Assembly (NCBI GenBank): GCA_937996685.1
Contig: CALKUP010000001.1
Span: 45,322-109,321, forward strand
Direction: 5' to 3'
DNA: 64,000 nt
Source: an uncultured bacterium
GTDB taxonomy: Bacteria > Patescibacteriota > Patescibacteriia > UBA9570 > XYC2-FULL-38-9
In this document: positions 1,383 to 37,658 of the stretch, piece by piece
How positions within the stretch are numbered: the stretch's first letter is position 1
How the letters are laid out: every line of letters starts with the position of its first letter
Made by a program: the position numbers and the translations under genes
The notes under the pieces: model-generated
Database searches by the model: none
Told to the model about the DNA's origin: nothing
The model's input: the letters and a program-made list of their open reading frames with translations, nothing else

Positions 1383-1413
1383 GGTGCAGAGAGCTTGAAG
1401 TCAGGAGGTTGGC

Positions 1414-1806
1414 TTACTGCACGTAGAGGACGCAGATCTTGAGCGTCTCGAGCGCTGCCAAGATCTCGTTCAGGTGCAGCTTAGGGTCCCGTCTCCGTGT
1501 CTGGCCCGTTGTTGGGGAGCTGTCCGGGACGTTCTTCCACGGAATGCTCGCGAGATCAAACGAGATCTCGACGTCAAAGACGAGCCTGTCTGTCCACCTG
1601 TCTCCAAGGCGCGTGTGAACTGAACGCCGAGAGCTCATATGTACCGCGATGAGCGCGCGGCCTATGCCTTGAGCGCCGTAGATCGCCTCCTGGACCTGCT
1701 GGTGCGTTACCAGCGGGACCTCAGGGTTGTCCTGAATGGTGAGCCTCAGCGTTTTCGCGAAGTACGGCCTTGCTGGTTTCGTGTCTTGATTTCCGTTCTC
1801 TACCAT
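1414..1806 (-). CDS. hypothetical protein in a moderately GC-rich islet
   Basis: 130-aa ORF with no recognisable motif. It lies in a GC-elevated segment between the tyrS terminator and uvrB. A competing + strand ORF 1639..1884 overlaps it. Confidence 0.3.
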   Translation of the reverse strand: MVENGNQDTKPARPYFAKTLRLTIQDNPEVPLVTHQQVQEAIYGAQGIGRALIAVHMSSRRSVHTRLGDRWTDRLVFDVEISFDLASIPWKNVPDSSPTTGQTRRRDPKLHLNEILAALETLKICVLYVQ

Positions 1807-1916
1807 CTTGTCCTCCGTGAAAAGTGCGTCGCCATTTTGTTCATTTTAGAGCTGTTTGTCAAATATCAATATGCCGTCTTGTGATTTTTTGGGTTTCGCA
1901 GTAAGCTGAAAGTTCT

Positions 1917-3962
1917 ATGAAATTCGAACTCGCAAGCAATTTTCAACCCTCTGGTGATCAGCCAACAGCGATTAAAACACTGGTGAATGCTGTGCAAACA
2001 GATGAAAAAGACGCTATTTTATTAGGCGTGACCGGTTCTGGAAAAACCTTCACCATGGCGAATGTGATCGCGCAGACTCAAAAACCAACGCTCATCATTT
2101 CACATAACAAAACGCTGGCGGCGCAACTTGCTGGCGAATTTCGAGAATTTTTTCCAAAAAACGCGGTTGAATATTTTGTGAGTTATTACGATTACTATCA
2201 ACCAGAAGCGTATATTGCGCGGAGTGATACCTACATCGAAAAAGAAACCGACATCAACGAAGAGATTGATCGTTTGCGGCACGCGGCTGTGCAATCGATT
2301 TTAACGCGGCGTGACACAATTATTGTCGCGAGTGTGTCATGTATTTATGGGCTCGGCAGTCCAGAGAGTTACAAGGCTGGAAGCAAGGATGTTTCAATTG
2401 GCTCATTGAATCGCGAGCAGTTGCTGATTGCGCTTGTCGACATGCAATATTCTCGCAATGATATTGATTTTCATCGCGGAAGTTTTCGGGTGCGTGGTGA
2501 TATTGTTGAAGTGTTTCAAACATCCAGTGAGCATCGGGCACTGCGGTTTGATTTTTTTGGAAATGACCTTGAAGCAATTTCAGAGTTTGATGTCTTAACT
2601 GGCGAGGTGTTCGGGAATTTTCAAACAGTGACTATTTTTCCAGCGACACTCTATCAAGCAGCAGACGAGCATTTTGCAAAAGCGGTCCAAAATATTCGCG
2701 CTGATATGGAGCGGGAAGTGGCGGCGTTTGAAAAGAAAGGGAAGCTGATTGAAGCGCAGCGCCTGGCGCAACGGACAAAGTTTGATTTGGAGATGATTGA
2801 AAACGTCGGCTATGTGAACGGGATTGAAAATTATTCGCGCTATTTTGATGGTCGCGAGCCAGGGTCGCCACCGTTTACATTAATGGATTATTTTGCGGAT
2901 GATTATTTATTGATTATTGATGAGTCGCACCAAACTATTCCGCAAATTGGTGCAATGTACGGCGGTGATCGCTCACGTAAAGAATCGCTGATTGATCACG
3001 GCTTTCGGGTGAGCGGGGCATACGATAACCGTCCACTTCAGTTTGCAGAATTTGAACAACGCATGCCGCAAACAATTTATGTCTCCGCAACTCCAGGGAA
3101 ATATGAAAAAGCGAAAACAAATGTAGTTGCTGAGCAGTTGATTCGCCCAACCGGAATTACTGAGCCGAAAATTATTGTGAAGCCTGTTGCGACGCAAGTG
3201 AAAGATGTGCTGGAGCGCGTGCGTGAGCGGATTGAAAATGGCCAAAGAGCGTTGATTACAACGCTGACAAAAAAGATGGCCGAAGAGCTGACGGAATATT
3301 TGAATGAGCAAGGCATTGCAGTGCAATATATCCATTCTGATGTTGATAATATGGAGCGTCTCGAGATTTTGCGCGATTTGCGGCTTGGGAAATATGACGT
3401 GTTGATCGGTATTAACTTATTGCGCGAAGGTTTAGACTTGCCTGAAGTGTCTCTTGTGGCAATTTTAGATGCAGACAAAGAAGGGTTTTTGCGTTCAGAA
3501 ACAGCACTGACACAAACCATGGGACGCGCTGCTCGACATTTGGAAGGCACGGCGATTTTGTATGCAGATGTGATTACCGGCTCAATGCAACGCGCGATGG
3601 ATGAAATTAATCGACGGCGCACACTGCAAGAGGAATATAATAAGGAGCACAATATTGTGCCGGCTGCGATTGTCAAAGCGATTCGAGACGACCGATTGTC
3701 TGGAATGAAAAAAGTTGAGGAAGTAGATGATTCGCTTATTGATCCAGAAATTACAGACAAGCTCGCTGAGCCAGAATTTGTGCGCGTGCTTGATGAACTT
3801 CGTGGACGAATGCATCTTGCTGCTGAGAATTTAGAGTTTGAAGAAGCCGCCCGTTTGCGGGATAATTTGGATGAGCTTGAAACAGTCTTTCGACAGAAGT
3901 TTGGTGATTTGAAAAAACTGGCGAAACAAGCCAAGTCCGGCAACAGAAAAAAACGTGGATAA
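1917..3962 (+). CDS. uvrB: excinuclease ABC subunit B
   Basis: Walker A motif GVTGSGKTFTMANVI, helicase motifs and a C-terminal UVR domain (EEAARLRDNLDELE); 681 aa. Confidence 0.9.
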   Translation: MKFELASNFQPSGDQPTAIKTLVNAVQTDEKDAILLGVTGSGKTFTMANVIAQTQKPTLIISHNKTLAAQLAGEFREFFPKNAVEYFVSYYDYYQPEAYIARSDTYIEKETDINEEIDRLRHAAVQSILTRRDTIIVASVSCIYGLGSPESYKAGSKDVSIGSLNREQLLIALVDMQYSRNDIDFHRGSFRVRGDIVEVFQTSSEHRALRFDFFGNDLEAISEFDVLTGEVFGNFQTVTIFPATLYQAADEHFAKAVQNIRADMEREVAAFEKKGKLIEAQRLAQRTKFDLEMIENVGYVNGIENYSRYFDGREPGSPPFTLMDYFADDYLLIIDESHQTIPQIGAMYGGDRSRKESLIDHGFRVSGAYDNRPLQFAEFEQRMPQTIYVSATPGKYEKAKTNVVAEQLIRPTGITEPKIIVKPVATQVKDVLERVRERIENGQRALITTLTKKMAEELTEYLNEQGIAVQYIHSDVDNMERLEILRDLRLGKYDVLIGINLLREGLDLPEVSLVAILDADKEGFLRSETALTQTMGRAARHLEGTAILYADVITGSMQRAMDEINRRRTLQEEYNKEHNIVPAAIVKAIRDDRLSGMKKVEEVDDSLIDPEITDKLAEPEFVRVLDELRGRMHLAAENLEFEEAARLRDNLDELETVFRQKFGDLKKLAKQAKSGNRKKRG

Positions 3963-3969
3963 TTGTAGA

Positions 3970-4362: not shown

Positions 4363-4396
4363 TGTAGTAACATTGCAAAACGTCAAGGAGGGCGTC

Positions 4397-4603
4397 ATGG
4401 CTTCGCGGGAAGAAGATGAGGTAGAAAGAATAAAAAAAGAGCTCCGTGGTCCGCAGGTGCCGCCTGTGTCGCCGCTTGCCGGCCCTGGCAGGTTCTCGTC
4501 CAGCATGAGGGGTCCCGCGGTCCACGGGCCGGGACCTGGAACATTGCACACAGACGAGGCTGATAGGTGGCCGACGCCACCCGGCTCAAAAAACCCATCC
4601 TGA
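4397..4603 (+). CDS. small Pro/Gly-rich hypothetical protein in a GC-rich islet
   Basis: ATG sits 6 nt after a strong SD (aggaggg). The 68-aa low-complexity product is MASREEDEVERIKKELRGPQVPP.... The segment is very GC-rich compared with its flanks. It could be a remnant. Confidence 0.3.
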   Translation: MASREEDEVERIKKELRGPQVPPVSPLAGPGRFSSSMRGPAVHGPGPGTLHTDEADRWPTPPGSKNPS

Positions 4604-4620
4604 GTCAGTTCCCCAGGTGC

Positions 4621-4664
4621 GCCTGCGAAATACGATTCTTCGTGTTCTTGCAGGCCGTTTTTCC
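4621..4664 (+). terminator. putative rho-independent terminator
   Basis: gcctgc...gcaggc stem with a long loop, followed by cgttttt. Confidence 0.4.
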
Positions 4665-4789
4665 AAAGAACAGCATGCGTGCTGAGTTTTGAAAAGATGT
4701 TTTGTTGATATGGTCTCACATATGCTTTATATTTAGTTAGGCTTACTAAATATAAAATAGCCCGGAGGCGTCTTTACGTAAGGGAATAT

Positions 4790-5206
4790 ATGAAAATTGA
4801 ACAAGATATCGCCCTGCAGATATATAGTCTCATGCGCCTCATGCGTAAAAATGTAACAAATACATTAACGCTCGCACATGAACTCAGTATGGTGCAGATA
4901 CAAGCATTGCAGCTTATTTCCGAAGGACACGAAACAATGCGCGTTCTCGCAAATGAGATGCATGTCAAAATGCCGACATTGACTACACATATCGATAAGC
5001 TTGAAAAAGCGGGATATGTAAAACGATCGCACGATTCAGATGATCGTCGAGTCATTCGTGTCACAATGACCGCAAAAGGAAAAACAGCTTGGAAAAAATC
5101 CATGGATGCAAAAATGGAGCGGATGCAAAAGATGCTCCAAAAAATGTCGCTCAAAGACAAAAAAGATTTACAACGAATTATTACAAACATTTCAAAAGGC
5201 CTATGA
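4790..5206 (+). CDS. MarR-family transcriptional regulator
   Basis: Winged-helix MarR pattern (LTLAHELSMVQIQALQLIS...VKRSHDSDDRRVIRVTMTAKGK). Its stop overlaps the start of the downstream MFS gene (ATGA). Confidence 0.8.
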   Translation: MKIEQDIALQIYSLMRLMRKNVTNTLTLAHELSMVQIQALQLISEGHETMRVLANEMHVKMPTLTTHIDKLEKAGYVKRSHDSDDRRVIRVTMTAKGKTAWKKSMDAKMERMQKMLQKMSLKDKKDLQRIITNISKGL

Positions 5207-6891
5207 TCATGTCCGAGCTTACAAAAAACCAGAAGATCAGTGTGATGGTTGGTGTTATCCTCGCGATGCTCCTGTCAGCGCTTGATCAAACCATCGTCGC
5301 AACAGCGATGCCGCGCATTGCACAAGAGCTGAATGGCTTTGAGCATTTGAGTTGGCTCTTTACTTCATACATGCTCGCGTCGACAATCATTGTCCCTATT
5401 TACGGTAAGTTGTCAGACATGTACGGCCGTAAATATTTCTATATCAGTGGTATTATTATTTTCTTAATCGGTTCTGCATTGTCTGGCGCGGCCCAGGATA
5501 TGACACAATTGATTATCTTTCGCGCGATTCAAGGCCTTGGCGGTGGTGCGATTATGGTGAATTCATTTGCGGTGATTGGCGATATTTTCCCACCAGCAGA
5601 GCGTAGTAAATGGCAGGGGCTCATTGGCGGTGTGTTTGGATTATCTAGTGTTGCTGGGCCACTTATTGGTGGCGCGCTGACAGACGCTGGAAACTGGCGT
5701 TGGGTGTTTTATGTCAACATCCCAGTAGGAATTATTGCACTTGCAGTTGTATGGTATGTCTTGCCGCGAATTGTCCCTGAGGCGCGCAAACGCAGTATTG
5801 ATGTTCTGGGTGCGTTGACAATGGCAGCTTCGTTGATTTGTTTGTTGCTTGCGTGCGTGTGGGGTGGAACAGAATATGCATGGGGATCTTCACAAATTAT
5901 CGGATTATTTGTTGGTGCTGCTCTGTCTCTTGCTGCGTTCATCTTCATTGAATCAAAAGCGAAGGAGCCGATTCTTCCGCTTGAATTATTCAAGTCCCGC
6001 GTGTTTGTGACATCCGTTGCGACAACATTTTTAATCGGCATGGGAATGTTTGGTGCGATTTCATACATCCCACTATTCGCGCAAACAGTGATCGGCGTGA
6101 ACGCGACTCGTTCTGGATTGATTTTGACACCAATGATGGTTGGAATGATTACTTCAAGTGTATTCACAGGGCAGTATATTTCTCGTGTTGGTACATACAA
6201 AAAACTAACAATCGTAGGACTTGCTGTCGGCTCTCTTGGAATGTTCTTGTTGTCACAAATGTCAGCAGACACAACTAATCTGCAATTGATTCGAAATATG
6301 GTGATTGTCGGACTTGGTCTCGGCGTCGGCATGCCAGTCTTTAATGTGATCGTGCAAAGTGCGTTTGATCACAGCAAGCTCGGTGTTGTGACAGCGTCTG
6401 TGCAATTGTTCCGTAGCATCGGAGGAAGTGTGGGTGTAGCAATTTTTGGAACAATCTTGAACAACCGTTTAGCGGGACATATTGACGAAGCAAAAGGAAA
6501 TGCGTTTTTGCAAAATGTTGGTTCGATCGCGCCGCAGTTTAATCCTGATACATTTAATGCGAACACGCTACAGCAAGTCTTAAGTTTTCAAGGAAAGGAA
6601 CGCATCTTTGCGATGTTGCATCAAGCGCCAGCGGCTATGCAAGGACAGTTGATTTCTGGGTTTGAGCAATTTGCAGAAATGATGCGTGTTGGACTTGCCG
6701 ATTCTATCACTGTTGCTTTTACGGGTTCTGCAATTGTAATGGGCGTTGCGTTTGTGATTACATGGTTCTTGCCGGAAATTGCGATCCGCAAAACACATAG
6801 CTCGGCGCTGTCAGAAGGTGGAGCGGAACTTGCCGTAGAGCTCGGTGAATTTGATGCGGCAGACGAGCCAGAACTTGGTCGCGTAAAATAA
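5203..6891 (+). CDS. MFS transporter, DHA2/EmrB-QacA-like 14-TMS drug:H+ antiporter
   Basis: Start MIMSELTKNQ overlaps the marR stop by 4 nt. It has the MFS signature GKLSDMYGRK, about 14 hydrophobic segments and 563 aa. Confidence 0.8.
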   Translation: MIMSELTKNQKISVMVGVILAMLLSALDQTIVATAMPRIAQELNGFEHLSWLFTSYMLASTIIVPIYGKLSDMYGRKYFYISGIIIFLIGSALSGAAQDMTQLIIFRAIQGLGGGAIMVNSFAVIGDIFPPAERSKWQGLIGGVFGLSSVAGPLIGGALTDAGNWRWVFYVNIPVGIIALAVVWYVLPRIVPEARKRSIDVLGALTMAASLICLLLACVWGGTEYAWGSSQIIGLFVGAALSLAAFIFIESKAKEPILPLELFKSRVFVTSVATTFLIGMGMFGAISYIPLFAQTVIGVNATRSGLILTPMMVGMITSSVFTGQYISRVGTYKKLTIVGLAVGSLGMFLLSQMSADTTNLQLIRNMVIVGLGLGVGMPVFNVIVQSAFDHSKLGVVTASVQLFRSIGGSVGVAIFGTILNNRLAGHIDEAKGNAFLQNVGSIAPQFNPDTFNANTLQQVLSFQGKERIFAMLHQAPAAMQGQLISGFEQFAEMMRVGLADSITVAFTGSAIVMGVAFVITWFLPEIAIRKTHSSALSEGGAELAVELGEFDAADEPELGRVK

Positions 6892-6908
6892 TAAAGCACA
6901 AAAAGAAA

Positions 6909-6946
6909 AACGCAGATGATTGCAACAAGCACGTCTGCGTTTTTTT
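6909..6946 (+). terminator. rho-independent terminator after the MFS gene
   Basis: Perfect 7-bp stem acgcaga/tctgcgt followed by T7. Confidence 0.7.
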
Positions 6947-7137
6947 AATAAAGAAAGGCCTGAGAACAGTAGTGTGTTTGGCAGCGTGGTGGACGGTTCG
7001 CCTCGTTGGTTTCAGAAAGCAGGGAGGTGACCTTCCAAGCGCACGGCACGTTCCAGTGTCACTACTTATTCTCAGGCGCAGGTGTTTTACACTATGTATT
7101 ACGTCTTGGTCAAGATAGTTGCAATTTTTATCGTTTT

Positions 7138-7166
7138 TTGATAGTGTTTTGAGGCTCTCAAATTAT
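7138..7166 (+). promoter_or_regulatory. putative sigma70-like promoter of rpsT
   Basis: TTGATA, a 17-nt spacer, then AATTAT, about 50 nt upstream of the rpsT start. Found by pattern inspection only. Confidence 0.3.
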
Positions 7167-7215
7167 ATACACAAATTGTCCCAAACAATTATTATCATTC
7201 TATTTATTCATTCTT

Positions 7216-7479
7216 ATGGCAAATAAAGCAGCAGCAAAAAAAGATTTGCGCCAAACCGCAAAACGTACAGCCCGCAATAACATCAAGCGAAAATCAATCA
7301 AAGAAGCAATGAAAATGCTTGAAAAAGCGTTGAAAGAAGGCGCGTCTGACGTTGAAGCATTGGTTGTGAAGGCGCAAAAGGCGCTTGATAAAGCAGCGAA
7401 AACAAATGTGATTCACAAAAACAAAGCATCTCGCTTGAAATCACAAGTTGCAAAAAAAGCTAAAGCAGTCAAAAAATAA
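7216..7479 (+). CDS. rpsT: 30S ribosomal protein S20
   Basis: MANKAAAKKDLRQTAKRTARNNIKRKSIKEA... is the typical S20 N-terminus; 87 aa. Confidence 0.9.
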   Translation: MANKAAAKKDLRQTAKRTARNNIKRKSIKEAMKMLEKALKEGASDVEALVVKAQKALDKAAKTNVIHKNKASRLKSQVAKKAKAVKK

Positions 7480-7493
7480 TACTGTTCCTACAA

Positions 7494-7526
7494 AAAAACC
7501 TCCAGTGCGGAGGTTTTTTATTTTGT
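7494..7526. terminator. bidirectional rho-independent terminator between convergent rpsT and holA
   Basis: Hairpin cctcc-agtgc-ggagg flanked by an A-run upstream and ttttttatttt downstream. Confidence 0.75.
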
Positions 7527-7540
7527 CCCGTTTTTCATTA

Positions 7541-8482
7541 CTACTCAGGCGTGCACAAGGTTGCAAAGAGTAGGAGAAAGCGACTTTCTGGATCCGGAAG
7601 TTTTCCGGTTTTACTGTCCGCGTCAATATGCGCTAGCTCATTCATCGCGTATTCAAGTTGTTCGACAGTAAATTTCGCGCCGCCTTCCTTGGCCTTTTTT
7701 GCGACAAATTCATGAACACCAGGCAGTGTCGCGTTTGGAGAGAGAGCGAACATCCGTAGTAAAACAAAATGTCGAAACAGAATTGTAGTGAGCAGTTGCA
7801 CTGCTGCGCCGCCGCTGACATGGGCGTGGAGTTCTTTCGCAATCGCTTGAATATTTTTACTACTCACTGCATCAGTGAGCGCAAAAAAGTTTTCCGGAGT
7901 TTCGTTGTTTTGTAATATTTCATCAACAACCGTTTTTGTAATGATTGCCGGATTTTTTTCTTGAGCCATAAACGCAAGCGACTTCACTGTGAGCGCGAGT
8001 TGCCATGTGTCAGCATGGAGCGCATTTGCAAGGTCGCGAGCAGCAGCATCTTCAATAGAGGCTCCCCAGCGAGTGGCTTCTTTTTCAACAAACGCTTTTG
8101 CTTCAAAGGCGGTGAGCGGCGCAAAGGTTTCTGTTTTTTGCGCGAGTTGCAATGCTTCTTTAAGCGTTGATTTTTTTGCGGGCATTGCATCAAGGGCGAC
8201 CAGGCAAATAACATCATCAGATAGGCTGCCGAGTGCGTGCGCGAGCGTCTCTTGATCTGTTTCTGCGAGAGCAAACGGGTCGCGAAGTACAACACATTTT
8301 TTTGTTGAAAACAAATCACCCGCAGTGAGAGCTTGTTTTATTTCGCCAATAGAAGCGACGTCGCATGAAAGGTCAGCAATTGCGCTGTCTGCTGTGTTAA
8401 ATTTTTGCACAAATGCATCACGCAAGACAGTGAGGCGTTGTCGTTTTCGAAAATGGTCTGCGCCAGTTAAAACAATGATCAT
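7541..8482 (-). CDS. holA: DNA polymerase III subunit delta
   Basis: 313-aa ORF directly downstream of polA on the same strand. N-terminus MIIVLTGADHFRKRQ... and overall size and pattern are HolA-like. Family call is from memory. Confidence 0.55.
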   Translation of the reverse strand: MIIVLTGADHFRKRQRLTVLRDAFVQKFNTADSAIADLSCDVASIGEIKQALTAGDLFSTKKCVVLRDPFALAETDQETLAHALGSLSDDVICLVALDAMPAKKSTLKEALQLAQKTETFAPLTAFEAKAFVEKEATRWGASIEDAAARDLANALHADTWQLALTVKSLAFMAQEKNPAIITKTVVDEILQNNETPENFFALTDAVSSKNIQAIAKELHAHVSGGAAVQLLTTILFRHFVLLRMFALSPNATLPGVHEFVAKKAKEGGAKFTVEQLEYAMNELAHIDADSKTGKLPDPESRFLLLFATLCTPE

Positions 8483-8500
8483 AGGGGTTCATTGTACGGA

Positions 8501-11236
8501 TTACGCGACGTCCGTCAATTCGCCCCAATTTTCTCCAACTTCAGCATCGACTGTTAACGGAACATTGAGTTCAACAGCGTGTTCCATGATTTTTTTAATT
8601 TTCGCAGTCTCTGATTTGACTTTGTCTTTTTTCACTTCAAACACAAGTTCATCGTGCACTTGCAGAATCATTGTTGCGTCAATATCGCCAGCGGCAATGG
8701 CTTTGCCAACTGCGATCATCGCGATTTTCATAATGTCTGCCGCTGTCCCTTGAACAGGCATGTTTACGGCCGCGCGTTCTGCGGCTGCTTTGAGCATCGG
8801 ATTTTTTCCTTGAATATCCGGCAGGTTGCGGCGGTGTCCAAATAATGTTTCGGCGTATCCGGATTGTTCTGTTTCCGCTTTAATGCGTTCGATGTATGTT
8901 TGAATGCCGGTGTGGACGGAAAAGTATTTATCAAGAAACACGCGCGCTTCGTCTCGGGAAATTCCGGAGTCACGCATAATGCCTTGCACGCCCATGCCGT
9001 AGAGAATGCCGAAGTTGATGGCTTTTGCAGCGCGACGCATATCTTTTGTCACCTTGTCCATTGGGACATCGTTTAATTCAGCGGCGGTTTTACTGTGAAT
9101 GTCCTCGCCATTTTGAAAGGCTTCTGTCATCACGGCATCGCCAGACAAGTGGGCAACAACCCGAAGTTCAATTTGTGAGTAATCAAGCGCGATGAGCAAA
9201 TTGCCTTTGTCTGCAATAAAGGCTTTGCGGATTTCACGGCCAAGCTCTGTGCGAATTGGAATGTTCTGCAAGTTTGGGTCTGTTGAGCTGAGGCGTCCGG
9301 TTGCGGCGATTGTTTGGTTAAATGACGTGTGAATGCGTCCTGTTTTTTGATTGATCAATGTCGGAAGTGAGTCGATGTAGGTTGATGTCAGTTTTTTTAA
9401 TTCACGAAATTCAGAAATTTTATCAATAATTGGATGCAGTCCGCGTAATTTTTCAAGTTCTGACGCCGCTGTCGAAAGACCAGTTTTTGTCTTTTTGATT
9501 TTGTCCGTTGAGATTTGCAATTTGTCGAATAAAATTTCGGCTAATTGCGCAGGACTTGCAACGTTAAATTCCGCACCAGCCATATCTTGAATTTCTCGAT
9601 TCACAATCGCAATACGTTTGTGTAGTTTTTTACTCATGTCGTGCAAAAATGGCACGTCAATTTTTACTCCCGCTTCTTCAACAGATACCAGGGTTCTCAG
9701 TGTTTCCATTTCAATGTCGAAGAATAATGTTTCATAGCCTTCGCTTGTGATACGTGGAGCAAATCGGTTATACAGGCGCAATGAAAAATCAGCATCTTCA
9801 GCGGCGTACCAGGCAACTTTTTCTACTGCGACATCTGCCATCGATAATTGGTTTTTGCCTTTGCCGATGAGCTCCTCAATGGATTGCATGGTGTAATCAA
9901 ATTCGGCAAACGCCAACGCGTCTAGTGAGTGTCCGCGTCCGCCACCGCTCAAAATGTATGATGCAAGCATGGTGTCGAAAGCGACTCCAGCAACAGCAAC
10001 GCCCGCGCCATGTAAAATTTCAACATCGTATTTAATGTTGTGGCCAGTTTTTTGAATCGCCGGATTTTCTAGAATCGCTTGAATATCTTTCGGAACACTA
10101 ACGGCGCCATTTTTTGTCATGCATGGAATATAGATGCCGTGGCCTTCTTCCCAGGCAATACTAATGCCAACAAGTTCTGCGGCCATTGCATCAACGCCGG
10201 TTGTTTCGGTGTCGATTGCTATCATTGATTGTTTTTCAATGATAGCGCAGACGTCTGCAATGTCTTCAGGAGTTTGAATAAGGCGATAGACAGAATCTTT
10301 ATCGACTGGTTTTTCGTTCACCGCCTCTTCCTCAATGCCGATCGCAAACAAACCTTCTTTTTTTGTAAACCCTGGAAGTGTTTCAATTGTTTTTAGTAAT
10401 GAATGAAATTCCCATGCCCGAAACAAATCGCGAATTTTTGCTTCGTTGTACTGTCCGATTTTTGCAGCACTTGCATCAAACTCAACCGGCGCGTCGCACA
10501 CAATGGTTGCGAGTTCACGCGACATTTCGGCTTGGTCTTGCTGTCCTTCAAGTGCCTTGCGATTCCGTCCGGTAATCTCTTCCAAGTGAGCGTAAATATT
10601 TTCAATTGTGCCAAATGCTTTGAGTAGTTCTGTCGCGCCTTTTTCGCCAATGCCTTTCACGCCTGGAATATTATCAGAGGTATCACCACGAAGTCCTTTG
10701 TATTCGATGACTTGTTCCGGTGTAAATTGATATGCCGCTTCAACAGACGCGCGATCAAATAATTCCATTTCCTTAACCCCTTTTTTCAACCGCAATACTT
10801 TTGTATGCGCGTCGACAAGCTGCAACAAATCCATGTCACCGGTCAAAATAATTGCTTCTTGTTTTTTTGTTTTGGTCGCTTGTTTTGCGATGGTTCCAAT
10901 AAGATCGTCTGCTTCAAATCCAGAGAGCTTGAATACTGGAAAGCCAAATGCTGCAACAACGTCTTCAACGAGCGGGAACTGCGTAATCAAGTCAGCGTCA
11001 GTTTCAGAGCGATTCGCCTTATAGTCTTTGAATTGTTTGTGACGAAATGTTGGGCCTTTTGAGTCAAAACAGACAACGACCTCGTCTGGTTTCATGTCCT
11101 TGAGGGCGTTGATTGTCATTAATAAAAAGCCGTAGACCGCTCCAACCGGTGTTCCGTCAGAAGAGGTAAGTGGAGGGAGGGCGTGATATGCACGGTGAAT
11201 GAGCGCGTGAGCGTCGATAATAAGGAGTTTTTTCAT
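8501..11236 (-). CDS. polA: DNA polymerase I
   Basis: 911 aa. It has an N-terminal 5'-3' exonuclease, a 3'-5' exo region and a C-terminal family A polymerase with motifs RRAAKAINFGILYGM and QVHDELVFE. Confidence 0.9.
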   Translation of the reverse strand: MKKLLIIDAHALIHRAYHALPPLTSSDGTPVGAVYGFLLMTINALKDMKPDEVVVCFDSKGPTFRHKQFKDYKANRSETDADLITQFPLVEDVVAAFGFPVFKLSGFEADDLIGTIAKQATKTKKQEAIILTGDMDLLQLVDAHTKVLRLKKGVKEMELFDRASVEAAYQFTPEQVIEYKGLRGDTSDNIPGVKGIGEKGATELLKAFGTIENIYAHLEEITGRNRKALEGQQDQAEMSRELATIVCDAPVEFDASAAKIGQYNEAKIRDLFRAWEFHSLLKTIETLPGFTKKEGLFAIGIEEEAVNEKPVDKDSVYRLIQTPEDIADVCAIIEKQSMIAIDTETTGVDAMAAELVGISIAWEEGHGIYIPCMTKNGAVSVPKDIQAILENPAIQKTGHNIKYDVEILHGAGVAVAGVAFDTMLASYILSGGGRGHSLDALAFAEFDYTMQSIEELIGKGKNQLSMADVAVEKVAWYAAEDADFSLRLYNRFAPRITSEGYETLFFDIEMETLRTLVSVEEAGVKIDVPFLHDMSKKLHKRIAIVNREIQDMAGAEFNVASPAQLAEILFDKLQISTDKIKKTKTGLSTAASELEKLRGLHPIIDKISEFRELKKLTSTYIDSLPTLINQKTGRIHTSFNQTIAATGRLSSTDPNLQNIPIRTELGREIRKAFIADKGNLLIALDYSQIELRVVAHLSGDAVMTEAFQNGEDIHSKTAAELNDVPMDKVTKDMRRAAKAINFGILYGMGVQGIMRDSGISRDEARVFLDKYFSVHTGIQTYIERIKAETEQSGYAETLFGHRRNLPDIQGKNPMLKAAAERAAVNMPVQGTAADIMKIAMIAVGKAIAAGDIDATMILQVHDELVFEVKKDKVKSETAKIKKIMEHAVELNVPLTVDAEVGENWGELTDVA

Positions 11237-11372
11237 GTATTGATACTAACAGACCGTGTGGATCCGTGCCAGCAATCATTTTTGTGGTGATATTTAGCAG
11301 AGAGTATCGACAAAATCCGCGACGTGCGGTACGGTTGCGGCAACACCGTACCTTACAGTATTGGAGGGTCAA

Positions 11373-12020
11373 ATGGGACGAGGACGCGAATTGCGTAAGC
11401 GCCGCCAGCGTACCCGTACAGGCTGGCAAAGTGTCCCTGTGAGCTGGTCGGAAAACAATGAGCACCACATCGTGCCTCGTTCTCGGATCTTTTACGATCC
11501 AGAACACGGAGACGAAAAACGGATTCAGGTTCTGTGCTACTTCTGGCATACGCTGTGCTGGCACAGACTGTTCGAAAATGCGTTGCCAGGAGAAGTTGTC
11601 GAGGTGTTGATGTTGGCTGCGAAGTCGGCAAAAGACATGACGTTTCGTGGGCAAGTTCATCAGCAGCGCTGGCGCTTGATCAAAGAGGCTCTGTGGCGAA
11701 CGCGTCAAAAAACAGATGCCTTCTTCCGAGCGCAGGGCCGCGCCGCCATCCGATTGCATTTGCGTGACCAAGACATCGAAGACCTGGACCTTGATTTTTC
11801 TTTGTTCCCAAAACGGGAGCAAAAGGATCTTGAGTTCCTTTTCGGAGACACGCTGCGGTCGACGCTCGGTATTCACTGGATGCTTGAGCAAGTAATGCCG
11901 GTCACAGCGATCAAGGCAATGCCGGCGCTGAATCTCCAAAATCTTCGTGACCTCGCAATGAGATGTCATCACAGAGTGATGGCGCATCGCGCAGCACGGA
12001 AGACCGGCCGGGCAGGATAA
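11373..12020 (+). CDS. hypothetical basic protein with an HNH-like nuclease motif, in a GC-rich islet
   Basis: ATG follows a strong SD (ggaggg). SENNEHHIVPRSR...VLCYFWHTLCWH resembles the HNH core (HH-I-x-P-R ... LC..H...H). The segment is GC-rich relative to its flanks. Confidence 0.4.
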   Translation: MGRGRELRKRRQRTRTGWQSVPVSWSENNEHHIVPRSRIFYDPEHGDEKRIQVLCYFWHTLCWHRLFENALPGEVVEVLMLAAKSAKDMTFRGQVHQQRWRLIKEALWRTRQKTDAFFRAQGRAAIRLHLRDQDIEDLDLDFSLFPKREQKDLEFLFGDTLRSTLGIHWMLEQVMPVTAIKAMPALNLQNLRDLAMRCHHRVMAHRAARKTGRAG

Positions 12021-12092
12021 CGGCCCACAACAACAGAGGGGGAACAAGAGGTGATCGGACGGGTCATCTCTTTTTCTTTATATATAGAGTGT

Positions 12093-14348: not shown

Positions 14349-14468
14349 AAAAAAATATCCTTCTAGTGCGAGAAGCGCCTGAAGGATGTGTCGGGTCTAT
14401 TGTGCAATACTGTTTCGTGGCTGTCAATTGGTTGACGCTGGCCCGTGATCCATCTATTCTTGCAGATA

Positions 14469-16381: not shown

Positions 16382-16441
16382 CATTCTCTGTTTTGACGAA
16401 TTTGTGAAATCGCGATAGGCTGTTTGAACGTTTCCGCTTCT

Positions 16442-24087: not shown

Positions 24088-26996
<2,909 letters not shown>

Positions 26997-27209
26997 ATGG
27001 TCTTGACGTATAGTTGATACTATACCGCGTGCAAGACGCACGCTCTACGTTTCAGTTTGTATAAAAGCAAACAAGAGAAGAAACAACGCAGAAATATTTT
27101 GATCTATTCAGTTAAGTAACGTTTTATCGCAAGAGAGGTGATGCTCTCCTGTGATGAAAGCGGTTAGAGTCACCAGAGTTGTGATGCGAAACAGATTCGC
27201 GTAACAATT

Positions 27210-27431: not shown

Positions 27432-27923
27432 ATGACCAATACAAACCAAGTCTTGTCCGTTCAAGTACCGAAGAGCTCTAAACTTCGTCGGAGGTTTACA
27501 ACACAGGATCGCGACAGACTAATGTCCTTTGTCATTGAATGGGCACGCCTTGCAGGTGCGATCCAAGAGCAGTTGCAATACGTTGCGTACCTGGTTTTGA
27601 AAGACAATAGTCAGAGCCTTGCAGTCGCGGCTCACGCTCTTGTAGATCATCGGGGTTGCTTGGGGTGTGATGCTCATTGGGTGCCCGGGATAAGTAACGA
27701 GCTGGATTGCCTGGCGTTGTTTCTCGACTTCAAGGCGAGGCGGCGACCTGCTCCGCGTACGGAAGAGGAGGACGATCCAGGAGGTGGTGAACAGTGGGGT
27801 TGCTACGACCTCGCGATTCTTGTGTACTACGGTCACGATGGAAAATTCGTTTTCGCACGGGTTGACCTCGCGCTCGATTTCGAGCACAAAATAGCGGAGG
27901 AGTTCTTCGCTCCGGATGCGTAA
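27432..27923 (+). CDS. hypothetical protein in a GC-rich islet
   Basis: ATG follows a strong SD (gcaggagg). The 163-aa product has no recognised motif. It is GC-rich relative to flanks and sits immediately downstream of the rRNA terminator. Confidence 0.4.
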   Translation: MTNTNQVLSVQVPKSSKLRRRFTTQDRDRLMSFVIEWARLAGAIQEQLQYVAYLVLKDNSQSLAVAAHALVDHRGCLGCDAHWVPGISNELDCLALFLDFKARRRPAPRTEEEDDPGGGEQWGCYDLAILVYYGHDGKFVFARVDLALDFEHKIAEEFFAPDA

Positions 27924-28069
27924 TCTCGCGCCAGGCCACCTCAGGTCACAACATCATTCTGACGTGGCAACAGGGAGGGGTGTTTCACAAAGCGCCCTTC
28001 CTTATTTCTTATTTGATATATGCTACGTGGTAGTTTTTTTAGAGTGATACATGTGCTAGGCTAGAGCGT

Positions 28070-29365
28070 ATGAAAACCATTATTGATCTCCACATGCACT
28101 CGCATTATTCGCGAGCGACCAGCAAGCAACTGACGCCGTTTGGGATTGTTCGCGCTGCGGCGCTGAAGGGCGTTGATGTGATTGCGACAGGCGATATCAC
28201 GCATCCGCAATGGCTCGATGAAATTGAACGCGATTGCATTGAAGATGGTAGTGGATTTTTGACGTTGAAGCCTGAAGTGATTGAACGAAACTGGAAAGCG
28301 GAAGATCCGTATTGGATGCGCGAGGCAATGACTCGAGTGCGGCTCATTTTGTTTGGTGAGGTGAGTAATATCTATAGACGCGATGACAAAACACGTCGAG
28401 TACATATGTTGTTCGGCGTTTCTTCGCTCGCAGCAGCGCGTGCGGTCAACACTGAGTTGCAGGATCGTGGATATAACATTCTGTATGACGGGCGACCAAT
28501 TATCGGGATGGATGTTCGCGAGCTAATGAAAATGTATTTGGACGTAGATCCGAATGCGCTTGTGATCCCGGCGCATATTTGGACGCCATGGTTTGCATTG
28601 TTTGGCAGCAAGTCGGGCTTTGATTCTTTAGAAGAGTGTTTTGGCGACATGACGCCGCATATTTTTGCTATTGAAACAGGCTTGTCGTCTGACCCGGCAA
28701 TGAACGTGCGAGTAAGCTCCTTGAACAACGTGTTGATTACCAGTCACTCTGACGCCCATTCAACAGAAAAAGTTGGGCGAGAAGCAACCGTGATGGAATT
28801 GCCAGAACGCACATACACCGCCTTGCATACAGCAATGAAAAATCGAGAAGGCCCGCTCTGTACAATTGAGTTTTATCCGGAAGAAGGGAAGTATCACATG
28901 GATGGCCACAGAGCGTGCAATGTTCGACTCACCCCAAAAGAAACCTTGAAAAATAACGGCTTGTGTCCGGTGTGCAAATTACCAGTGGTAGTCGGAGTCA
29001 TGAATCGCGTGGAGCAAATCGCGGATCAAACGGCGGACGAGCGACCAAAAAATGTCAGCGCACCATTTCAATCAATCGTTCCGCTTCCAGAAATTATTGC
29101 ATCAGCCTTTGGTGTGAAAAGTGTGACAAGCAAGCGCGTGCAAGCAGAATTCATGTCGCTGATTCACGCACTTGGTAATGAGTTTTTTATTTTACTTGAT
29201 GCGCCAATTAAAGACATTGCTCGTGTTGCGCATCCGCTCGTTGCGGAAGGGGTCAAGCGAGTGCGCGAAGGAACAATTCACATTGAACCAGGCTATGACG
29301 GAGCATTTGGTGTTGTCGAGGTCTTTACGCAAGATGAGCGCGCGCAATACAAACAGCGCTCGTAG
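28070..29365 (+). CDS. PHP-domain protein, endonuclease Q-like
   Basis: PHP N-terminus DLHMHSHYSRATS with further metal-binding His and Asp residues. An internal CPVCKLP zinc-finger-like motif sits about two thirds of the way along. At 431 aa it matches the size and architecture of EndoQ/TIGR00375-type proteins as I recall them. Confidence 0.5.
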   Translation: MKTIIDLHMHSHYSRATSKQLTPFGIVRAAALKGVDVIATGDITHPQWLDEIERDCIEDGSGFLTLKPEVIERNWKAEDPYWMREAMTRVRLILFGEVSNIYRRDDKTRRVHMLFGVSSLAAARAVNTELQDRGYNILYDGRPIIGMDVRELMKMYLDVDPNALVIPAHIWTPWFALFGSKSGFDSLEECFGDMTPHIFAIETGLSSDPAMNVRVSSLNNVLITSHSDAHSTEKVGREATVMELPERTYTALHTAMKNREGPLCTIEFYPEEGKYHMDGHRACNVRLTPKETLKNNGLCPVCKLPVVVGVMNRVEQIADQTADERPKNVSAPFQSIVPLPEIIASAFGVKSVTSKRVQAEFMSLIHALGNEFFILLDAPIKDIARVAHPLVAEGVKRVREGTIHIEPGYDGAFGVVEVFTQDERAQYKQRS

Positions 29366-31579: not shown

Positions 31580-31705
31580 AGTATATATTATTGTAACACA
31601 CTGTACAGCACTTTTTCCGTACACACAATATTGTTTTCTTTGGTAAATCCCGCTAGGATGAATAAACACACTGAATCAATAGTGTGCTCATTCCAAGGAC
31701 AAAGC

Positions 31706-32398
31706 ATGACAAATGAATTGCCACAGTGGGACCCGAGCGTGACGGTGTTTTCGCGTTCGCAGCGCCCGACTCGTGACGAGGTTGAGGCAATGGCCCAGAT
31801 GATGGGCCTGGGCTTTCAGAGCTCTCGCTTGATGCAGCATTGGGCTGGCGACACGAGCGTTTCCGGCATCGTCGAGTTGATGCGGATGACGTTGTGGGCG
31901 GGTCTTCGATATGGCTGGGTCGCGACGACCTGGGACGACAGTGTCCCGACGGCGGTTTCTGTCTGGATTCCGCCGGGCGTGCGTGTGCCTGCGTGGTGGC
32001 AGGCGAGCTTGCTTCCGAGCATGGTCCGACAGTTTGGACTCACTCAAGCCTGCTTGATCCTCCGAGACCTCATCGTTTTAGACGGTGTGCATTCCGCGGC
32101 TGATCGGGAGATCGGAGAGCATGCCTATCTGCTCACGATTGTCACGCATCCGGGCTATCGACGCCAAGGACACTTCGCGCGCCTGATGATGCCGGTGGTG
32201 GACTGGTGCGATCACGTGGGCTGCGCTGCGTACCTCGAGTCCGATGACACCGGCGAGTCTGATCCTGATAAATGGAACAGATATCGTTACAGGAACTTCG
32301 GTTTTCGGTTGTACGGCAACGGAATTCCAGTTAGCGCAGAAGCACTGCGCTTGCTCTACCCGGCAATGATTCGCCCGAAACGCCCACAGCATTCCTGA
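31706..32398 (+). CDS. GNAT-family N-acetyltransferase, GC-rich and likely horizontally acquired
   Basis: Acetyl-CoA binding motif A LLTIVTHPGYRRQGHFARLM. The segment is clearly GC-rich relative to flanks and abuts tRNA-Ser. Confidence 0.6.
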   Translation: MTNELPQWDPSVTVFSRSQRPTRDEVEAMAQMMGLGFQSSRLMQHWAGDTSVSGIVELMRMTLWAGLRYGWVATTWDDSVPTAVSVWIPPGVRVPAWWQASLLPSMVRQFGLTQACLILRDLIVLDGVHSAADREIGEHAYLLTIVTHPGYRRQGHFARLMMPVVDWCDHVGCAAYLESDDTGESDPDKWNRYRYRNFGFRLYGNGIPVSAEALRLLYPAMIRPKRPQHS

Positions 32399-33501: not shown

Positions 33502-33504
33502 ATA

Positions 33505-35871: not shown

Positions 35872-35928
35872 GTAAAAAAATGATGATCTTATTGCTTTTT
35901 TACCATATTTTCGGCAGTATAACAATGA

Positions 35929-37179
35929 ATGAAAAAACATAATCTCATTATTATTGGCGGCGGCGCATCTGGCTTGATGGCGGCTGTTGTGGTTGCTCGG
36001 CGAGGACAGCGCGTTTTGATTTTGGAAAAGAACGCCGTTGTTGGGCAAAAGCTCGCGATTACTGGCGGTGGGCGCTGTAACATTACAAATCTGCAAACAG
36101 ATCGACATGCGCTGCTAGCAAATTACGGCGCAGCGAGTAAATTTTTATTTTCTCCGTTCGCGCAGTTTTCAAATGAAGATACCGTTGAATTTTTTGAAGA
36201 GCTTGGACTCCCAATAAAAGTCGAGGCCAACAATCGTGCCTTCCCAGTTTCGGAATCCGCGCCAGATGTTGTTCGTGTGCTCAAAGAAGAGTGTGTGCGG
36301 CTCGGTGTCGAAATTCGGACACACGCGACTGTGAAACAGATTGAAAGTGCAAACGGCGCAATCACAGGAGTTGTGTGCGGCGGAGAAGTGCTGGTTGCAG
36401 ATTCGTATCTGCTTGCGACAGGCGGAAATTCACGCCCGGAAACAGGGTCAACCGGTGATGGATTTGCATGGTTGAAAGACCTTGAGCACACCGTTGTTGC
36501 GCCAACTCCAACGCTGGTGCCGTGGCTTTGTGCGGATAGCTGGACGAAACAAGCCTCTGGAGTGACACTAGAAAATGCCGCGCTGACAGTATTTGTGAAT
36601 GGTGCGAAAAAGGTTCGCAAAGTGGGGAATATATTGTGTACACACCAGGGCTTGTCTGGTCCGCTGATTTTGAATACATCCGGAGAGATTGCGCAGCCGC
36701 TTGCAGCTGGCGCAGCGGTCTCAGCGACAATTGATTTGTTTCCGACACTCGATCATGGAGCGCTTGATGCACAGCTTCTTGAATTGTTTGCGCTCGCGCC
36801 AAGCAAGCAAGTAAAAAATATTTTGACCGGACTTATTCCAGCGACACTTGTTCCGTCGGTGTTGTCGTTACTTGCAGCGAAGCAGACAGAAGATATCGCA
36901 GCCTTGACTGCAAGTGTGCTGCATCGCGAACAGCGTCGTGCGCTTGTGCAATTACTGAAGGCGATGCCAGTGACGGTTTCTGGCTTGGCAGGTTTTGAAA
37001 AGGCGATTGTGGCTGACGGTGGAGTCGCGCTAGAAGAAATTGATATGAAAACGATGCGCTCTAAAAAAATCAGCAATTTGTTTGTGACTGGAGATTTGTT
37101 ACATATCAATCGACCATCTGGTGGTTTTTCGTTGCAACTGTGTTGGACAACCGGTTTTGTTGCGGGGACGCATTGTTGA
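35929..37179 (+). CDS. HI0933-family flavoprotein (BaiN/aminoacetone-oxidase-like FAD enzyme)
   Basis: GGGASGLMAAV Rossmann motif, then EKNAVVGQKLAITGGGRCNITN, which is typical of the HI0933-like family; 416 aa. Confidence 0.75.
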   Translation: MKKHNLIIIGGGASGLMAAVVVARRGQRVLILEKNAVVGQKLAITGGGRCNITNLQTDRHALLANYGAASKFLFSPFAQFSNEDTVEFFEELGLPIKVEANNRAFPVSESAPDVVRVLKEECVRLGVEIRTHATVKQIESANGAITGVVCGGEVLVADSYLLATGGNSRPETGSTGDGFAWLKDLEHTVVAPTPTLVPWLCADSWTKQASGVTLENAALTVFVNGAKKVRKVGNILCTHQGLSGPLILNTSGEIAQPLAAGAAVSATIDLFPTLDHGALDAQLLELFALAPSKQVKNILTGLIPATLVPSVLSLLAAKQTEDIAALTASVLHREQRRALVQLLKAMPVTVSGLAGFEKAIVADGGVALEEIDMKTMRSKKISNLFVTGDLLHINRPSGGFSLQLCWTTGFVAGTHC

Positions 37180-37239
37180 ATAGAATAAGAAAATGTTCGG
37201 GCCGCCGACGGTGAAGTCAGCAGCCCGGGTGAGCGAGGG

Positions 37240-37539
37240 TCAGTCCTTGAACTCGACCCAGCCAACGCCAGTGTTGGCGTTGTAGTAGGCGGTATAGCCC
37301 GGCTCGGGCACAACACGCTCCGCCGTCATCCAGCCGGTGCCCTCGAACAAAAACATGCCGGGCGAACCAGACTCGTACGCCAGCTCCATGATGCGGAGGG
37401 AAGCAGGACCGGCCGAGGTCATGAAAACCACTGCGCCGGGGGTAGGTGCGTAGGCTTCGAGAAAGCCGAACGCGACTCCCTGAGCCGGGGGGTTGTGGAG
37501 ACTTGAGACAATGTTGAGTCGTGTCAATGGGCACCTCAT
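37240..37539 (-). CDS. hypothetical protein in a GC-rich islet
   Basis: ORF in a strongly GC-rich approximately 400-bp segment between the HI0933 gene and proS. No motif was found and the start is uncertain (track ORF 37240..37602). Confidence 0.25.
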   Translation of the reverse strand: MRCPLTRLNIVSSLHNPPAQGVAFGFLEAYAPTPGAVVFMTSAGPASLRIMELAYESGSPGMFLFEGTGWMTAERVVPEPGYTAYYNANTGVGWVEFKD

Positions 37540-37658
37540 TACGGTTTGTTGTGATCGTCTGGCACCGTAAAACCAGACCGCTGAAAATACCATATTTTCC
37601 ATAAAAGGTCAATGCATTTGGGTTGAACTCTGGCGAAAACGTGGTAGTATGAATTTCT

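Follow-up and report, generated by a model that had tools for sequence, protein, structure and literature searches.

G+C-rich single-gene cassettes in intergenic slots of a Kerfeldbacteria-like genome, including a purA imported from a high-G+C lineage

Introduction

The minimal mobile elements of Neisseria (Saunders and Snyder) are reportedly sites at which conserved flanks frame strain-variable cassettes of one or a few genes, without integrases or repeats, and the cassettes are said to be exchanged by transformation and homologous recombination in the flanks. In Patescibacteria, according to one study, individually transferred genes and small genomic islands are mostly exchanged among Patescibacteria themselves, with some diverse donors from outside, and competence and pili are proposed as the route of transfer (PMC12455944). 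Transformation is likewise associated with small, evenly spread gene gains in Acinetobacter and Legionella (PMC12359135), and this kind of event is already known from both Patescibacteria and transformable bacteria. Here, we analyze a stretch of 64,000 nucleotides (nt) from contig CALKUP010000001.1 of assembly GCA_937996685.1 (hereafter the window), in which nine short, mostly G+C-rich segments, termed islets i1 to i9, lie in intergenic sites (slots) between native genes, one of them carrying purA. We propose, at a probability of roughly 0.55, that the islets are recombination-driven single-gene cassettes of foreign character and mixed ages, housed in a few permissive slots.

As in the Neisseria elements, the flanks are conserved here (74 to 90% nt identity to the closest relative), slots 1, 2, and 5 hold unrelated genes in that relative, and no mobility genes are present; the Neisseria cassettes are said to circulate within a genus of similar composition, whereas those of the window contrast sharply with their genome in G+C content and translation signals. 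The system described in Patescibacteria is alike in phylum and in the kind of event, namely small acquired regions and single genes. A term search of that account did not turn up four features seen here: fixed slots traced across relatives, the contrast between genes with and without a Shine-Dalgarno (SD) sequence, two occurrences in a single slot of one gene of the same outside lineage, and the persistence of high G+C in old cassettes. The transformation hot spots of PMC12359135 were measured experimentally and within species, whereas here we only infer transformation, the purA donor belongs to another phylum, and the recipient is an ultrasmall bacterium of symbiotic type. With tRNA-linked islands and integron cassettes, the islets share atypical composition, single-open reading frame (ORF) units, and, for three of them, a position beside tRNA or rRNA genes. 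Unlike classical genomic islands, they have no integrase and no direct repeats and measure 0.3 to 1.4 kb rather than more than ~10 kb; unlike integron cassettes, they show no attC-like repeat shared at their borders, have no intI, and are dispersed instead of arrayed.

Results

G+C-rich islets between intact native genes

Sliding windows gave G+C-rich segments at 1301-1800, 4376-4675, 11301-12050, 18351-18700, 19776-20525, 22101-23525, 27601-28000, 31701-32325, and 37151-37575, scattered over 36 kb. The corresponding features are listed below, with GC1, GC2, and GC3 denoting G+C at the three codon positions and aa denoting amino acids.

1414-1806, minus strand (islet about 1301-1860): i1, a 130-aa ORFan in slot 1, between TyrRS and UvrB, marked by its composition and SD.
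4376-4630, plus strand: i2, the slot 2 cassette, after a cytidylyltransferase-like gene and before MarR, with a possible 68-aa P/G-rich ORF at 4397-4603; G+C 0.587.
11373-12020, plus strand: i3, a 215-aa protein of a fast-evolving, clade-restricted family in slot 3, between PolA and an LTD protein; terminator at 12046-12072.
18262-18684, plus strand: i4, a 140-aa multi-zinc-ribbon-like protein with eight CxxC pairs in slot 4, between a 232-aa gene and an APH kinase.
19822-20475, minus strand: i5, a putatively secreted 217-aa protein in slot 5, between the APH kinase and TrmB and divergent from TrmB; terminator at 19806-19777.
22160-23441, plus strand (coding sequence 22173-23441, islet 22101-23525): i6, purA, encoding a 422-aa adenylosuccinate synthetase (PF00709), between tRNA-Leu and 23S rRNA.
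27432-27923, plus strand: i7, a 163-aa ORFan between 5S rRNA and a PHP-domain (EndoQ-like) gene; GC1/GC2/GC3 0.64/0.40/0.55, SD AGGAGG.
31706-32398, plus strand: i8, a 230-aa GNAT acetyltransferase (PF00583) between a VTT-domain gene and tRNA-Ser(CGA).
37240-37602, minus strand: i9, an ORF of 95 to 120 aa between an HI0933-like flavoprotein gene and ProRS; G+C 0.58 to 0.61, GC3 0.68 to 0.74.

Each segment was compared with native chunks of equal length for G+C and dinucleotide signature. The z-scores for G+C were 3.7 (i1), 3.5 (i2), 3.4 (i3), 2.1 (i4), 5.9 (i5), 9.2 (i6), 2.9 (i7), 4.8 (i8), and 4.1 (i9), and eight of the nine segments lay above the highest native chunk of their length, i7 just barely. 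The dinucleotide signature was that of an outlier (P < 0.04) in six (i1, i2, i5, i6, i7, and i8), borderline in i9, and native-like in i3 and i4. A preliminary description of the window, made from the sequence alone, had placed nine G+C-elevated segments at these positions and asked for a proper outlier computation; the signal persisted in that computation, and the claim stands for eight of the segments and falls for i4, whose G+C is within the native range. At the codon level, GC3 was 0.54 to 0.84 in the best islet ORFs versus 0.26 to 0.49 in native genes, and GC1 and GC2 were raised too. A G+C pattern by codon position is seen in i1, i3, i5, i6, i7, i8, and i9. Sliding windows found no segment of comparable G+C between 40 and 64 kb of the window, and the chance of all nine islets falling within the first 38 kb is ~0.009.

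Several features of the preliminary description were recovered. The flanking native genes are intact on both sides of all nine islets; each islet has a single plausible ORF, with that of i2 uncertain for lack of codon periodicity; and long antisense ORFs are present, for example at 22122-23528 (minus strand) opposite purA. Neither integrase nor transposase domains were found among the scanned ORFs of the window, and comparison of the islets revealed no repeats that flank them or are common to several of them. This lack of shared ends or repeats argues against miniature inverted-repeat transposable elements and against elements of the insertion sequence (IS) or integron type, and the islets remain what they had been taken for, dispersed single-gene inserts of foreign composition without mobility genes and not one large island. 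A link with tRNA or rRNA genes had also been suggested: i6, i7, and i8 do adjoin such genes, but the association is not significant (P = 0.09). Among the islet proteins, Pfam matched only purA (PF00709) and the GNAT protein of i8 (PF00583). Searches of PHROG and PADLOC gave no match for the islets, i.e., no sign of a phage or defense origin. With Rfam 15, nothing was found inside any islet even at E <= 1, and only the 23S rRNA, the 5S rRNA, and three tRNAs reached thresholds.

The window has a G+C content of 46.0% and, judged from its protein relatives, belongs to a Kerfeldbacteria-like member of the Patescibacteria, or candidate phyla radiation (CPR). The named relatives of its UvrB are Candidatus Kerfeldbacteria at 67 to 68% identity, with other Patescibacteria next, and the window is syntenic with a Kerfeldbacteria metagenome-assembled genome (L082, GCA_043813585.1) and with Kerfeldbacteria AQU-08 (L002). 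Its closest relative is L089, a 37-kb contig from the Joint Genome Institute (JGI) whose UvrB is 97% identical to the window copy in aa and 89% in nt. L089 is collinear with positions 1-24,000 in blocks of 74 to 90% nt identity, which are interrupted exactly at slots 1, 2, 3, 4, and 5. It is the sole close relative that covers slots 1 to 6, and no close relative spans slots 8 and 9; L001 and L002, obtained from a genome-collection scan with the EndoQ-like protein, are distant relatives informative for slot 7 only. A metagenome scan with TrmB as the query gave no match, and exact-match queries with the PolA, purA (P0001), and i5 sequences of the window returned no entry. The related loci were fetched via homologues of the islet proteins and thus form an ascertained sample, although SD status played no part in the retrieval. 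Homologues of the islet proteins were counted in a HMMER search of the concatenated proteins against 1.84 billion representative proteins (hereafter the census). Only for purA do the closest homologues belong to a distant taxon in whose clade the gene nests; in the census, the relatives of i3, i5, and i8 were restricted to CPR, and i1 and i7 had none.

Islet ORFs carry SD sequences that native genes lack

The remark that islet ORFs often carry a strong SD proved correct for six of the nine, in which the energy of pairing with the anti-SD reaches at least -6 kcal/mol, and the contrast goes beyond it, since native genes are essentially SD-less: only 2 of 45 reach the same energy, with a mean of -1.2 kcal/mol (Mann-Whitney P = 1.4e-4). 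In five islet ORFs, GGAGG is located 5 to 9 nt ahead of the ATG. The same link recurs in six related loci, where an SD precedes 11 of 16 GC3-rich genes versus 7 of 64 others (odds ratio of 18, Fisher P = 8e-6, for this ascertained sample). The SD contrast is a signal independent of base composition.

Many native genes show a TAnnnT-type box close to the start, no more than ~10 nt from the ATG, for example at 37640-37661 (ProRS) and 11237-11260 (PolA), and such boxes together with SD-less starts are likewise present in the related contigs L082, L083, L089, and L091. This suggests that leaderless or very short-leader mRNAs may be the default in this clade.

purA of i6 nests in a high-G+C clade

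The assignment of i6 as purA was borne out at the level of sequence by a full-length match to PF00709 (profile positions 1 to 416 of 416, 559 bits against a cut-off of 27, E = 7e-168) and by 82 to 86% identity to annotated adenylosuccinate synthases. The gene lies between tRNA-Leu(CAG) and 23S rRNA, has a G+C content of 0.65 and a GC3 of 0.84, and its start is preceded by a donor-type SD, AGAAGGAGGG. Its nearest non-self relative, P0002 (86% aa and ~82 to 83% nt identity), is encoded on a contig of 70% G+C (L087) with purQ upstream and purB downstream. Two further relatives are 82% identical, namely P0005 in aa, located on a contig of 71.6% G+C (L081) in the operon purQ-purA-purB-purC-purF-purD-purM, and P0003, which carries the NCBI label Myxococcota; this one label and contig composition are the basis on which the donor is called Myxococcota-like. 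Nucleotide similarity between the window gene and the donors is confined to the interval from position -10, the donor SD (TAGGAGG), through the stop codon. Since similarity begins at the donor TAGGAGG, the SD of purA arrived together with the gene.

A purA is present in the equivalent slot of L089, in the order TrmB, tRNA-Leu, purA, and pre-23S leader. That copy is 99.5% identical in aa and 96.1% in nt to the one on L087, an identity above that between native genes of the window and L089 (<= 90% nt), and the window purA is ~82% identical in nt to the L089 copy. A neighbor-joining tree placed the window gene as sister to the pair of L089 and P0002, with both CPR copies nested in a high-G+C clade. 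Branch-specific changes from G or C to A or T, relative to those in the opposite direction, numbered 46:5 for the window and 17:2 for L089 and were ~1:1 on the donor branches. The GC-to-AT bias on both CPR branches and the balance on the donor branches indicate transfer from a high-G+C organism into CPR, followed by amelioration. By these sequence criteria, purA is clearly an import from a Myxococcota-like lineage of ~70% G+C, in which it is native to a pur operon.

The purA history comprised either at least two entries into the same slot or one entry followed by overwriting in the L089 lineage by homologous donor DNA, and the ORF-precise junctions in both genomes would favor a single entry with later overwriting. 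A mosaic structure of the window gene was considered, and a sliding identity profile gave no clear mosaic. The donor may be a candidate host of this CPR bacterium.

Families restricted to CPR: i3, i5, and i8

The i3 gene has a G+C content of 0.54, a GC3 of 0.59, and the SD GGAGG. Its relatives in the census (P0127, P0128, and P0130/P0204) are 39 to 45% identical, and none occurs outside related CPR contigs. A gene of this family occupies the same PolA slot in the window, L085, L089, and L082 and lies near PolA in L086, five genomes in all. In L085, the PolA and LTD flanks are near-identical to those of the window and the terminator is conserved, with the i3 ORF ~40% identical; in L089, i3 is 45% identical in aa and PolA 79%. 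A disagreement between flank and cassette that would reveal swapping of i3 was sought, but the identities are roughly congruent and give no evidence of it. The description of i3 as HNH-like had to be abandoned: Pfam, PHROG, and PADLOC gave no match, and a profile search of the PDB returned nothing below E = 0.47. The AlphaFold2 (AF2) model is helical and, with a predicted local distance difference test (pLDDT) value of 58, too poor for use. In a viral-contig scan, i3 shared only a short motif, HHIVPR...WH..F.N, with one small viral ORF, a weak match. The gene adjoining i3 (12093-14348) encodes a protein of 751 aa in which lamin-tail domains are combined with an OB fold. This protein is conserved patchily, with 49 to 56% aa identity to its L089 counterpart, and it might bind or cleave DNA at the cell surface and so play a part in DNA uptake.

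The i5 gene has a G+C content of 0.616 and a GC3 of 0.73, and its relatives (P0134, P0136, P0137, and P0141; 26 to 34% identity) are again confined to related CPR contigs in the census; viral-contig scans gave no match. The family is divergent from TrmB in four genomes (the window, L082, L086, and L090) and is G+C-rich each time, whereas slot 5 of L089 holds unrelated G+C-rich, SD-bearing genes of 220 and 87 aa. The AF2 model of i5 (pLDDT 82) has an N-terminal signal-peptide helix followed by ~12 long strands, and all 25 Foldseek matches in the PDB at E <= 0.001 were outer-membrane barrels, such as OmpG and intimin/invasin, at template modeling (TM) scores of only 0.45 to 0.52. The C terminus of the family is aromatic (H-x-W) in four of five members, and the window copy ends in FRL. 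From this model, i5 is predicted to be a 12-strand beta-barrel of outer-membrane type, an unexpected protein for a lineage that is considered monoderm (bioRxiv 10.1101/2021.05.31.446380).

The alignments of i3 and i5 contain conserved motifs, which indicates that both are real protein families. Their copies in the relatives are G+C-rich compared with their own genome in every case and carry an SD in most. Both families occupy these loci even in CPR relatives with PolA proteins only ~60% identical to that of the window. In L082, the i5 homologue belongs to a run of four G+C-rich ORFs at 9122-12846 (GC3 of 0.67 to 0.92). An IS1595-type transposase gene, itself native in composition, breaks this run and is the sole mobility gene seen near any cassette.

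The i8 gene (G+C 0.57 to 0.59, GC3 0.66) matches PF00583 at 26.9 bits (cut-off 20.7) over profile positions 57 to 111 of 116 only, and its GNAT label can be retained on this sequence match above the curated cut-off with partial profile coverage. It represents a GNAT subfamily with relatives of 39% identity or less, the closest being P0129 (36%) and P0133 (~30%). Those with readable context are on CPR-type contigs (L083/L084 and L091), at other loci, and are G+C-rich relative to their own genome; the L083 relative has a GC3 of 0.72 against a background of ~0.40, and AAGGAGG lies before the start in L083/L084. Two genes from the GNAT islet, L084 has at 2057-2278 a 73-aa arginine-rich ORF (G+C 0.65, GC3 0.82, GAGGAGG before the ATG) that looks like another tiny G+C-rich cassette. 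L091 carries a UvrD helicase with Hint/intein domains at 6746-9919 and, at 12381-13743, the toxin-antitoxin pairs RelB/YafQ and BrnT/CopG, located just past a TrmB-linked G+C-rich gene.

Lineage-specific islets and i9

The islets i1, i2, i4, and i7 are lineage-specific. For i1 (G+C 0.583, GC1/GC2/GC3 0.60/0.41/0.74, GGAGG 6 nt ahead of the ATG), the census returned no homologue but itself. Similarity between the window and L089 ends at window position 1298 and picks up at 1879, and in L089 slot 1 is taken up by a 158-aa gene that is unrelated to i1 and native in composition. In i2, AAGGAGGG lies 5 nt ahead of the ATG, and the z-score of the RNA fold is only about -2.3 on either strand, indicative of weak structure; slot 2 of L089 contains another G+C-rich segment, of 373 bp with a 90-aa ORF, that has no sequence similarity to i2. 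The zinc-ribbon-like i4 found no family match in Pfam, PHROG, or PADLOC and is absent from L089, where the flanking genes are 113 nt apart. The census matched i7 only to its own cluster. In L001, the gap between 5S rRNA and EndoQ is occupied by two FN3-like genes whose composition is native; in L002, it lacks any ORF. Finally, i9 lacks an SD and has a single weak relative, P0161 (42%, E = 6e-5); an alternative 131-aa ORF in another frame looks spurious.

Two side observations concern genes next to these islets. At 17870-17995, the 5' part of the minus-strand 232-aa gene beside i4 contains degenerate 12/24-nt T/G-rich repeats and has diverged from L089. The 431-aa PHP-domain protein at 28070-29365, which adjoins the 5S rRNA and has the motif DLHMHSHY, is possibly endonuclease-Q-like; its relatives, at 45 to 50% identity, are spread over many unrelated phyla, with KSB1, Desulfobacterota, Clostridia, Alphaproteobacteria, and Bacteroidota among the groups represented, and this even identity across phyla hints that the gene may be frequently transferred.

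Slot variation beyond the islets

Comparison with closely related genomes had been proposed as a check on presence and absence, and that with L089 revealed such differences: i1 and i4 are absent from L089, the i2 and i5 sites hold unrelated content, and the i3 and purA families are in the same slot. Three further features bear on the slots.

4631-4699, plus strand: a 69-nt hairpin/terminator-like element closing slot 2, 93% identical to L089 5342-5410.
4700-6942, plus strand: a MarR-MFS two-gene insertion of native composition (Pfam MarR and MFS_1; G+C ~0.455).
14277-16405, plus strand: a DUF2079 membrane-protein gene (Pfam) of native composition (G+C 0.47), absent from L089.

The MarR-MFS site measures 27 bp in L089. 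Since both this insertion and the DUF2079 gene are absent from L089, change of intergenic gene content also involves DNA that is not G+C-rich. Another DUF2079 gene is located at 48729-50936. The 69-nt element comprises two hairpins, ACGA-TTCT-TCGT and CAGCA-TGCG-TGCTG, with a T-rich run behind them, and is conserved between the window and L089 though the sequences on both of its sides differ; from its sequence, it may be a terminator or a slot boundary element. Terminator-like elements are conserved at the edges of slot 2 and slot 3.

The 23S rRNA downstream of purA is bracketed exactly by a 28-nt inverted repeat (24070-24097 and 26998-27025, 96% complementary), presumably a processing stem. 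No 16S gene is found upstream of the 23S-5S pair within the window, and the rRNA genes appear to be unlinked. In AQU-08 (L002 5229-9125), the 23S rRNA spans 3,897 nt, compared with 2,918 nt in the window, and matches the full Rfam model, so that it must harbor an insertion of ~1 kb, either an intron or an intervening sequence.

Discussion

The above-described results would be accounted for by an AT-biased, SD-less genome with a small set of permissive intergenic slots between housekeeping genes, filled by single-gene cassettes that are G+C-rich at all three codon positions and bring their own SD. Both the arrival and the turnover of the cassettes would most likely depend on recombination with external DNA after its uptake, a route proposed because no mobility gene or repeat accompanies them. 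Initial insertion would be illegitimate or facilitated by homology, and the conserved flanks, or else the cassette, would direct later exchange or gene conversion. In such a scheme, i3 and i5 would be old residents tied to PolA and TrmB, and the family of i8 is so far known only from related CPR genomes, all three being fast-evolving yet G+C-rich. That the cassette ORFs are real genes is supported by the conserved motifs of their families, the confident structure model of i5, and the Pfam matches of purA and the GNAT protein. The data show the contrasts in composition and SD, where purA came from and in which direction it moved, the variation among slots, and how the families are distributed. 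We infer the foreign origin of the eight cassettes besides purA, as well as the uptake route, the slot mechanism, and the identity of the host.

Several observations weigh against this reading. An outside donor is identifiable for purA only, as i3, i5, and i8 are restricted to CPR and i1 and i7 are without homologues. The i4 gene, with a G+C content of only 0.52 and native-like dinucleotides, does not stand out in composition, and i2, in which codon periodicity is lacking (GC1/GC2/GC3 0.59/0.60/0.57), is possibly non-coding. Identities of i3 roughly track those of the PolA flank across the five genomes, and this congruence, together with the way i5 stays beside TrmB, fits vertical inheritance better than repeated import. 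Given the ~9:1 GC-to-AT drift seen in purA, old residents should have lost their G+C, and that they have not is unexplained. Moreover, no competence genes were identified in the window, and the uptake route is deduced from published work and from the lack of any other machinery.

The main rival to the cassette reading, which we regard as unlikely but by some distance the most credible of the alternatives, is that all islets except purA are native, vertically inherited, fast-evolving accessory genes whose high G+C and SD are actively maintained, possibly through selection for separate SD-dependent expression or through GC-biased gene conversion at recombination-active slots. It draws on the stable slots of i3 (by PolA in five genomes) and i5 (by TrmB in four), on the rough congruence between i3 and its PolA flank, on the confinement of the families to CPR-type contigs, and on the recurrence of the link between G+C-richness and SD in every relative examined. 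However, GC1 and GC2 are shifted too, which points to a long GC-biased history rather than to selection at synonymous sites alone, and the GC3 excess of 0.2 to 0.4 is, to our knowledge, far above the effects ascribed to bacterial gene conversion. The closest relative holds unrelated genes in slots 1, 2, and 5, and purA shows that these slots do receive foreign genes of just such a signature. If the i5 model is right, a barrel of outer-membrane type would also be odd in a lineage regarded as monoderm (bioRxiv 10.1101/2021.05.31.446380). Why slot-faithful families should stay 0.2 to 0.4 above the genome GC3 is explained neither by native genes nor by cassettes.

The preliminary description had favored repeated uptake of high-G+C DNA, possibly that of the host, and in its strict form every islet would have arrived recently and independently of the others, as a fragment of high-G+C cellular DNA from the host or another organism that entered by competence and was integrated by illegitimate recombination. 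This fits purA, an import of ~70% G+C; the other islets share a G+C-rich, SD-bearing character resembling that of the purA donor, and the closest relative is without i1 and i4. Yet no high-G+C cellular homologue was found in the census for any islet except purA, even though the purA donor lineage itself is sampled at 99.5% aa identity. Matches to i3 and i5 came only from CPR relatives at the same loci (beside PolA in five genomes and TrmB in four), the outcome that the description itself had named as refuting, and the presence of both families in relatives with PolA only ~60% identical shows that these islets are not recent. The proposal thus holds for i6, fails for i3 and i5, and is unsupported for i8; as a general account, it is improbable.

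In AT-rich genomes, intergenic regions of high G+C classically point to structured RNAs, and the islets could be non-coding RNAs with spurious ORFs, given that i2 lacks codon periodicity and folds slightly better than shuffled sequence (z about -2.3) and that high-G+C DNA yields long chance ORFs on both strands. The lack of any Rfam match in the islets at E <= 1, the codon-position G+C pattern of seven of them (i1, i3, and i5 to i9), and the protein homologues with conserved motifs for i3, i5, i6, and i8 exclude this for most islets and make it very improbable as a whole. Assembly or binning artefacts, i.e., high-G+C reads or contigs misjoined into a CPR contig, might be suspected since the sequence is metagenomic and purA-type donors occur in other public metagenome assemblies (L087 and L081), but they can be dismissed almost entirely, as native sequence frames the islets on both sides within a 267-kb contig, islet proteins recur in independent Logan and European Nucleotide Archive assemblies (P0001, P0199, and P0126), the order tRNA-Leu, purA, and pre-23S is found in the independent contig L089, equivalent islets exist in L083 to L086 and L090, and the GC-to-AT drift is specific to the CPR copies of purA.

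Beyond the reading of the islets as recombination-driven cassettes, we consider, as a long shot, that the clade actively maintains, at fixed slots, a separate class of genes marked by high G+C and a leading SD. One possible cause is that DNA of a single long-term high-G+C partner, the purA donor, keeps overwriting these genes and so resets their composition; another is that the genes are suited to host-type expression signals or to the host envelope, as the i5 barrel might be to the outer membrane of a diderm host.

For genome analysis, the contrast between SD-bearing and SD-less genes offers a cheap extra marker of foreign genes in such genomes, and gene callers whose training relies on native genes may assign wrong starts to these cassettes or overlook them. 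The persistent G+C-richness of the old cassettes also bears on the speed at which foreign DNA ameliorates in reduced genomes. The hosts of CPR bacteria are almost all unknown, and the 96% nt identity of a purA to its donor, together with an older copy in the same slot of a sister genome, provides a testable host candidate. Whether purA entered repeatedly or was overwritten, its shared donor lineage would mean that the two organisms have long been in physical contact, the donor possibly being the host. If a class of G+C-rich genes is indeed kept, the cassettes would be a record, and perhaps also a means, of the specific pairing of a CPR lineage with its host. For the organism itself, purA indicates that borrowed DNA can fill a gap in the metabolism of such a genome, here the step from inosine monophosphate to adenosine monophosphate.

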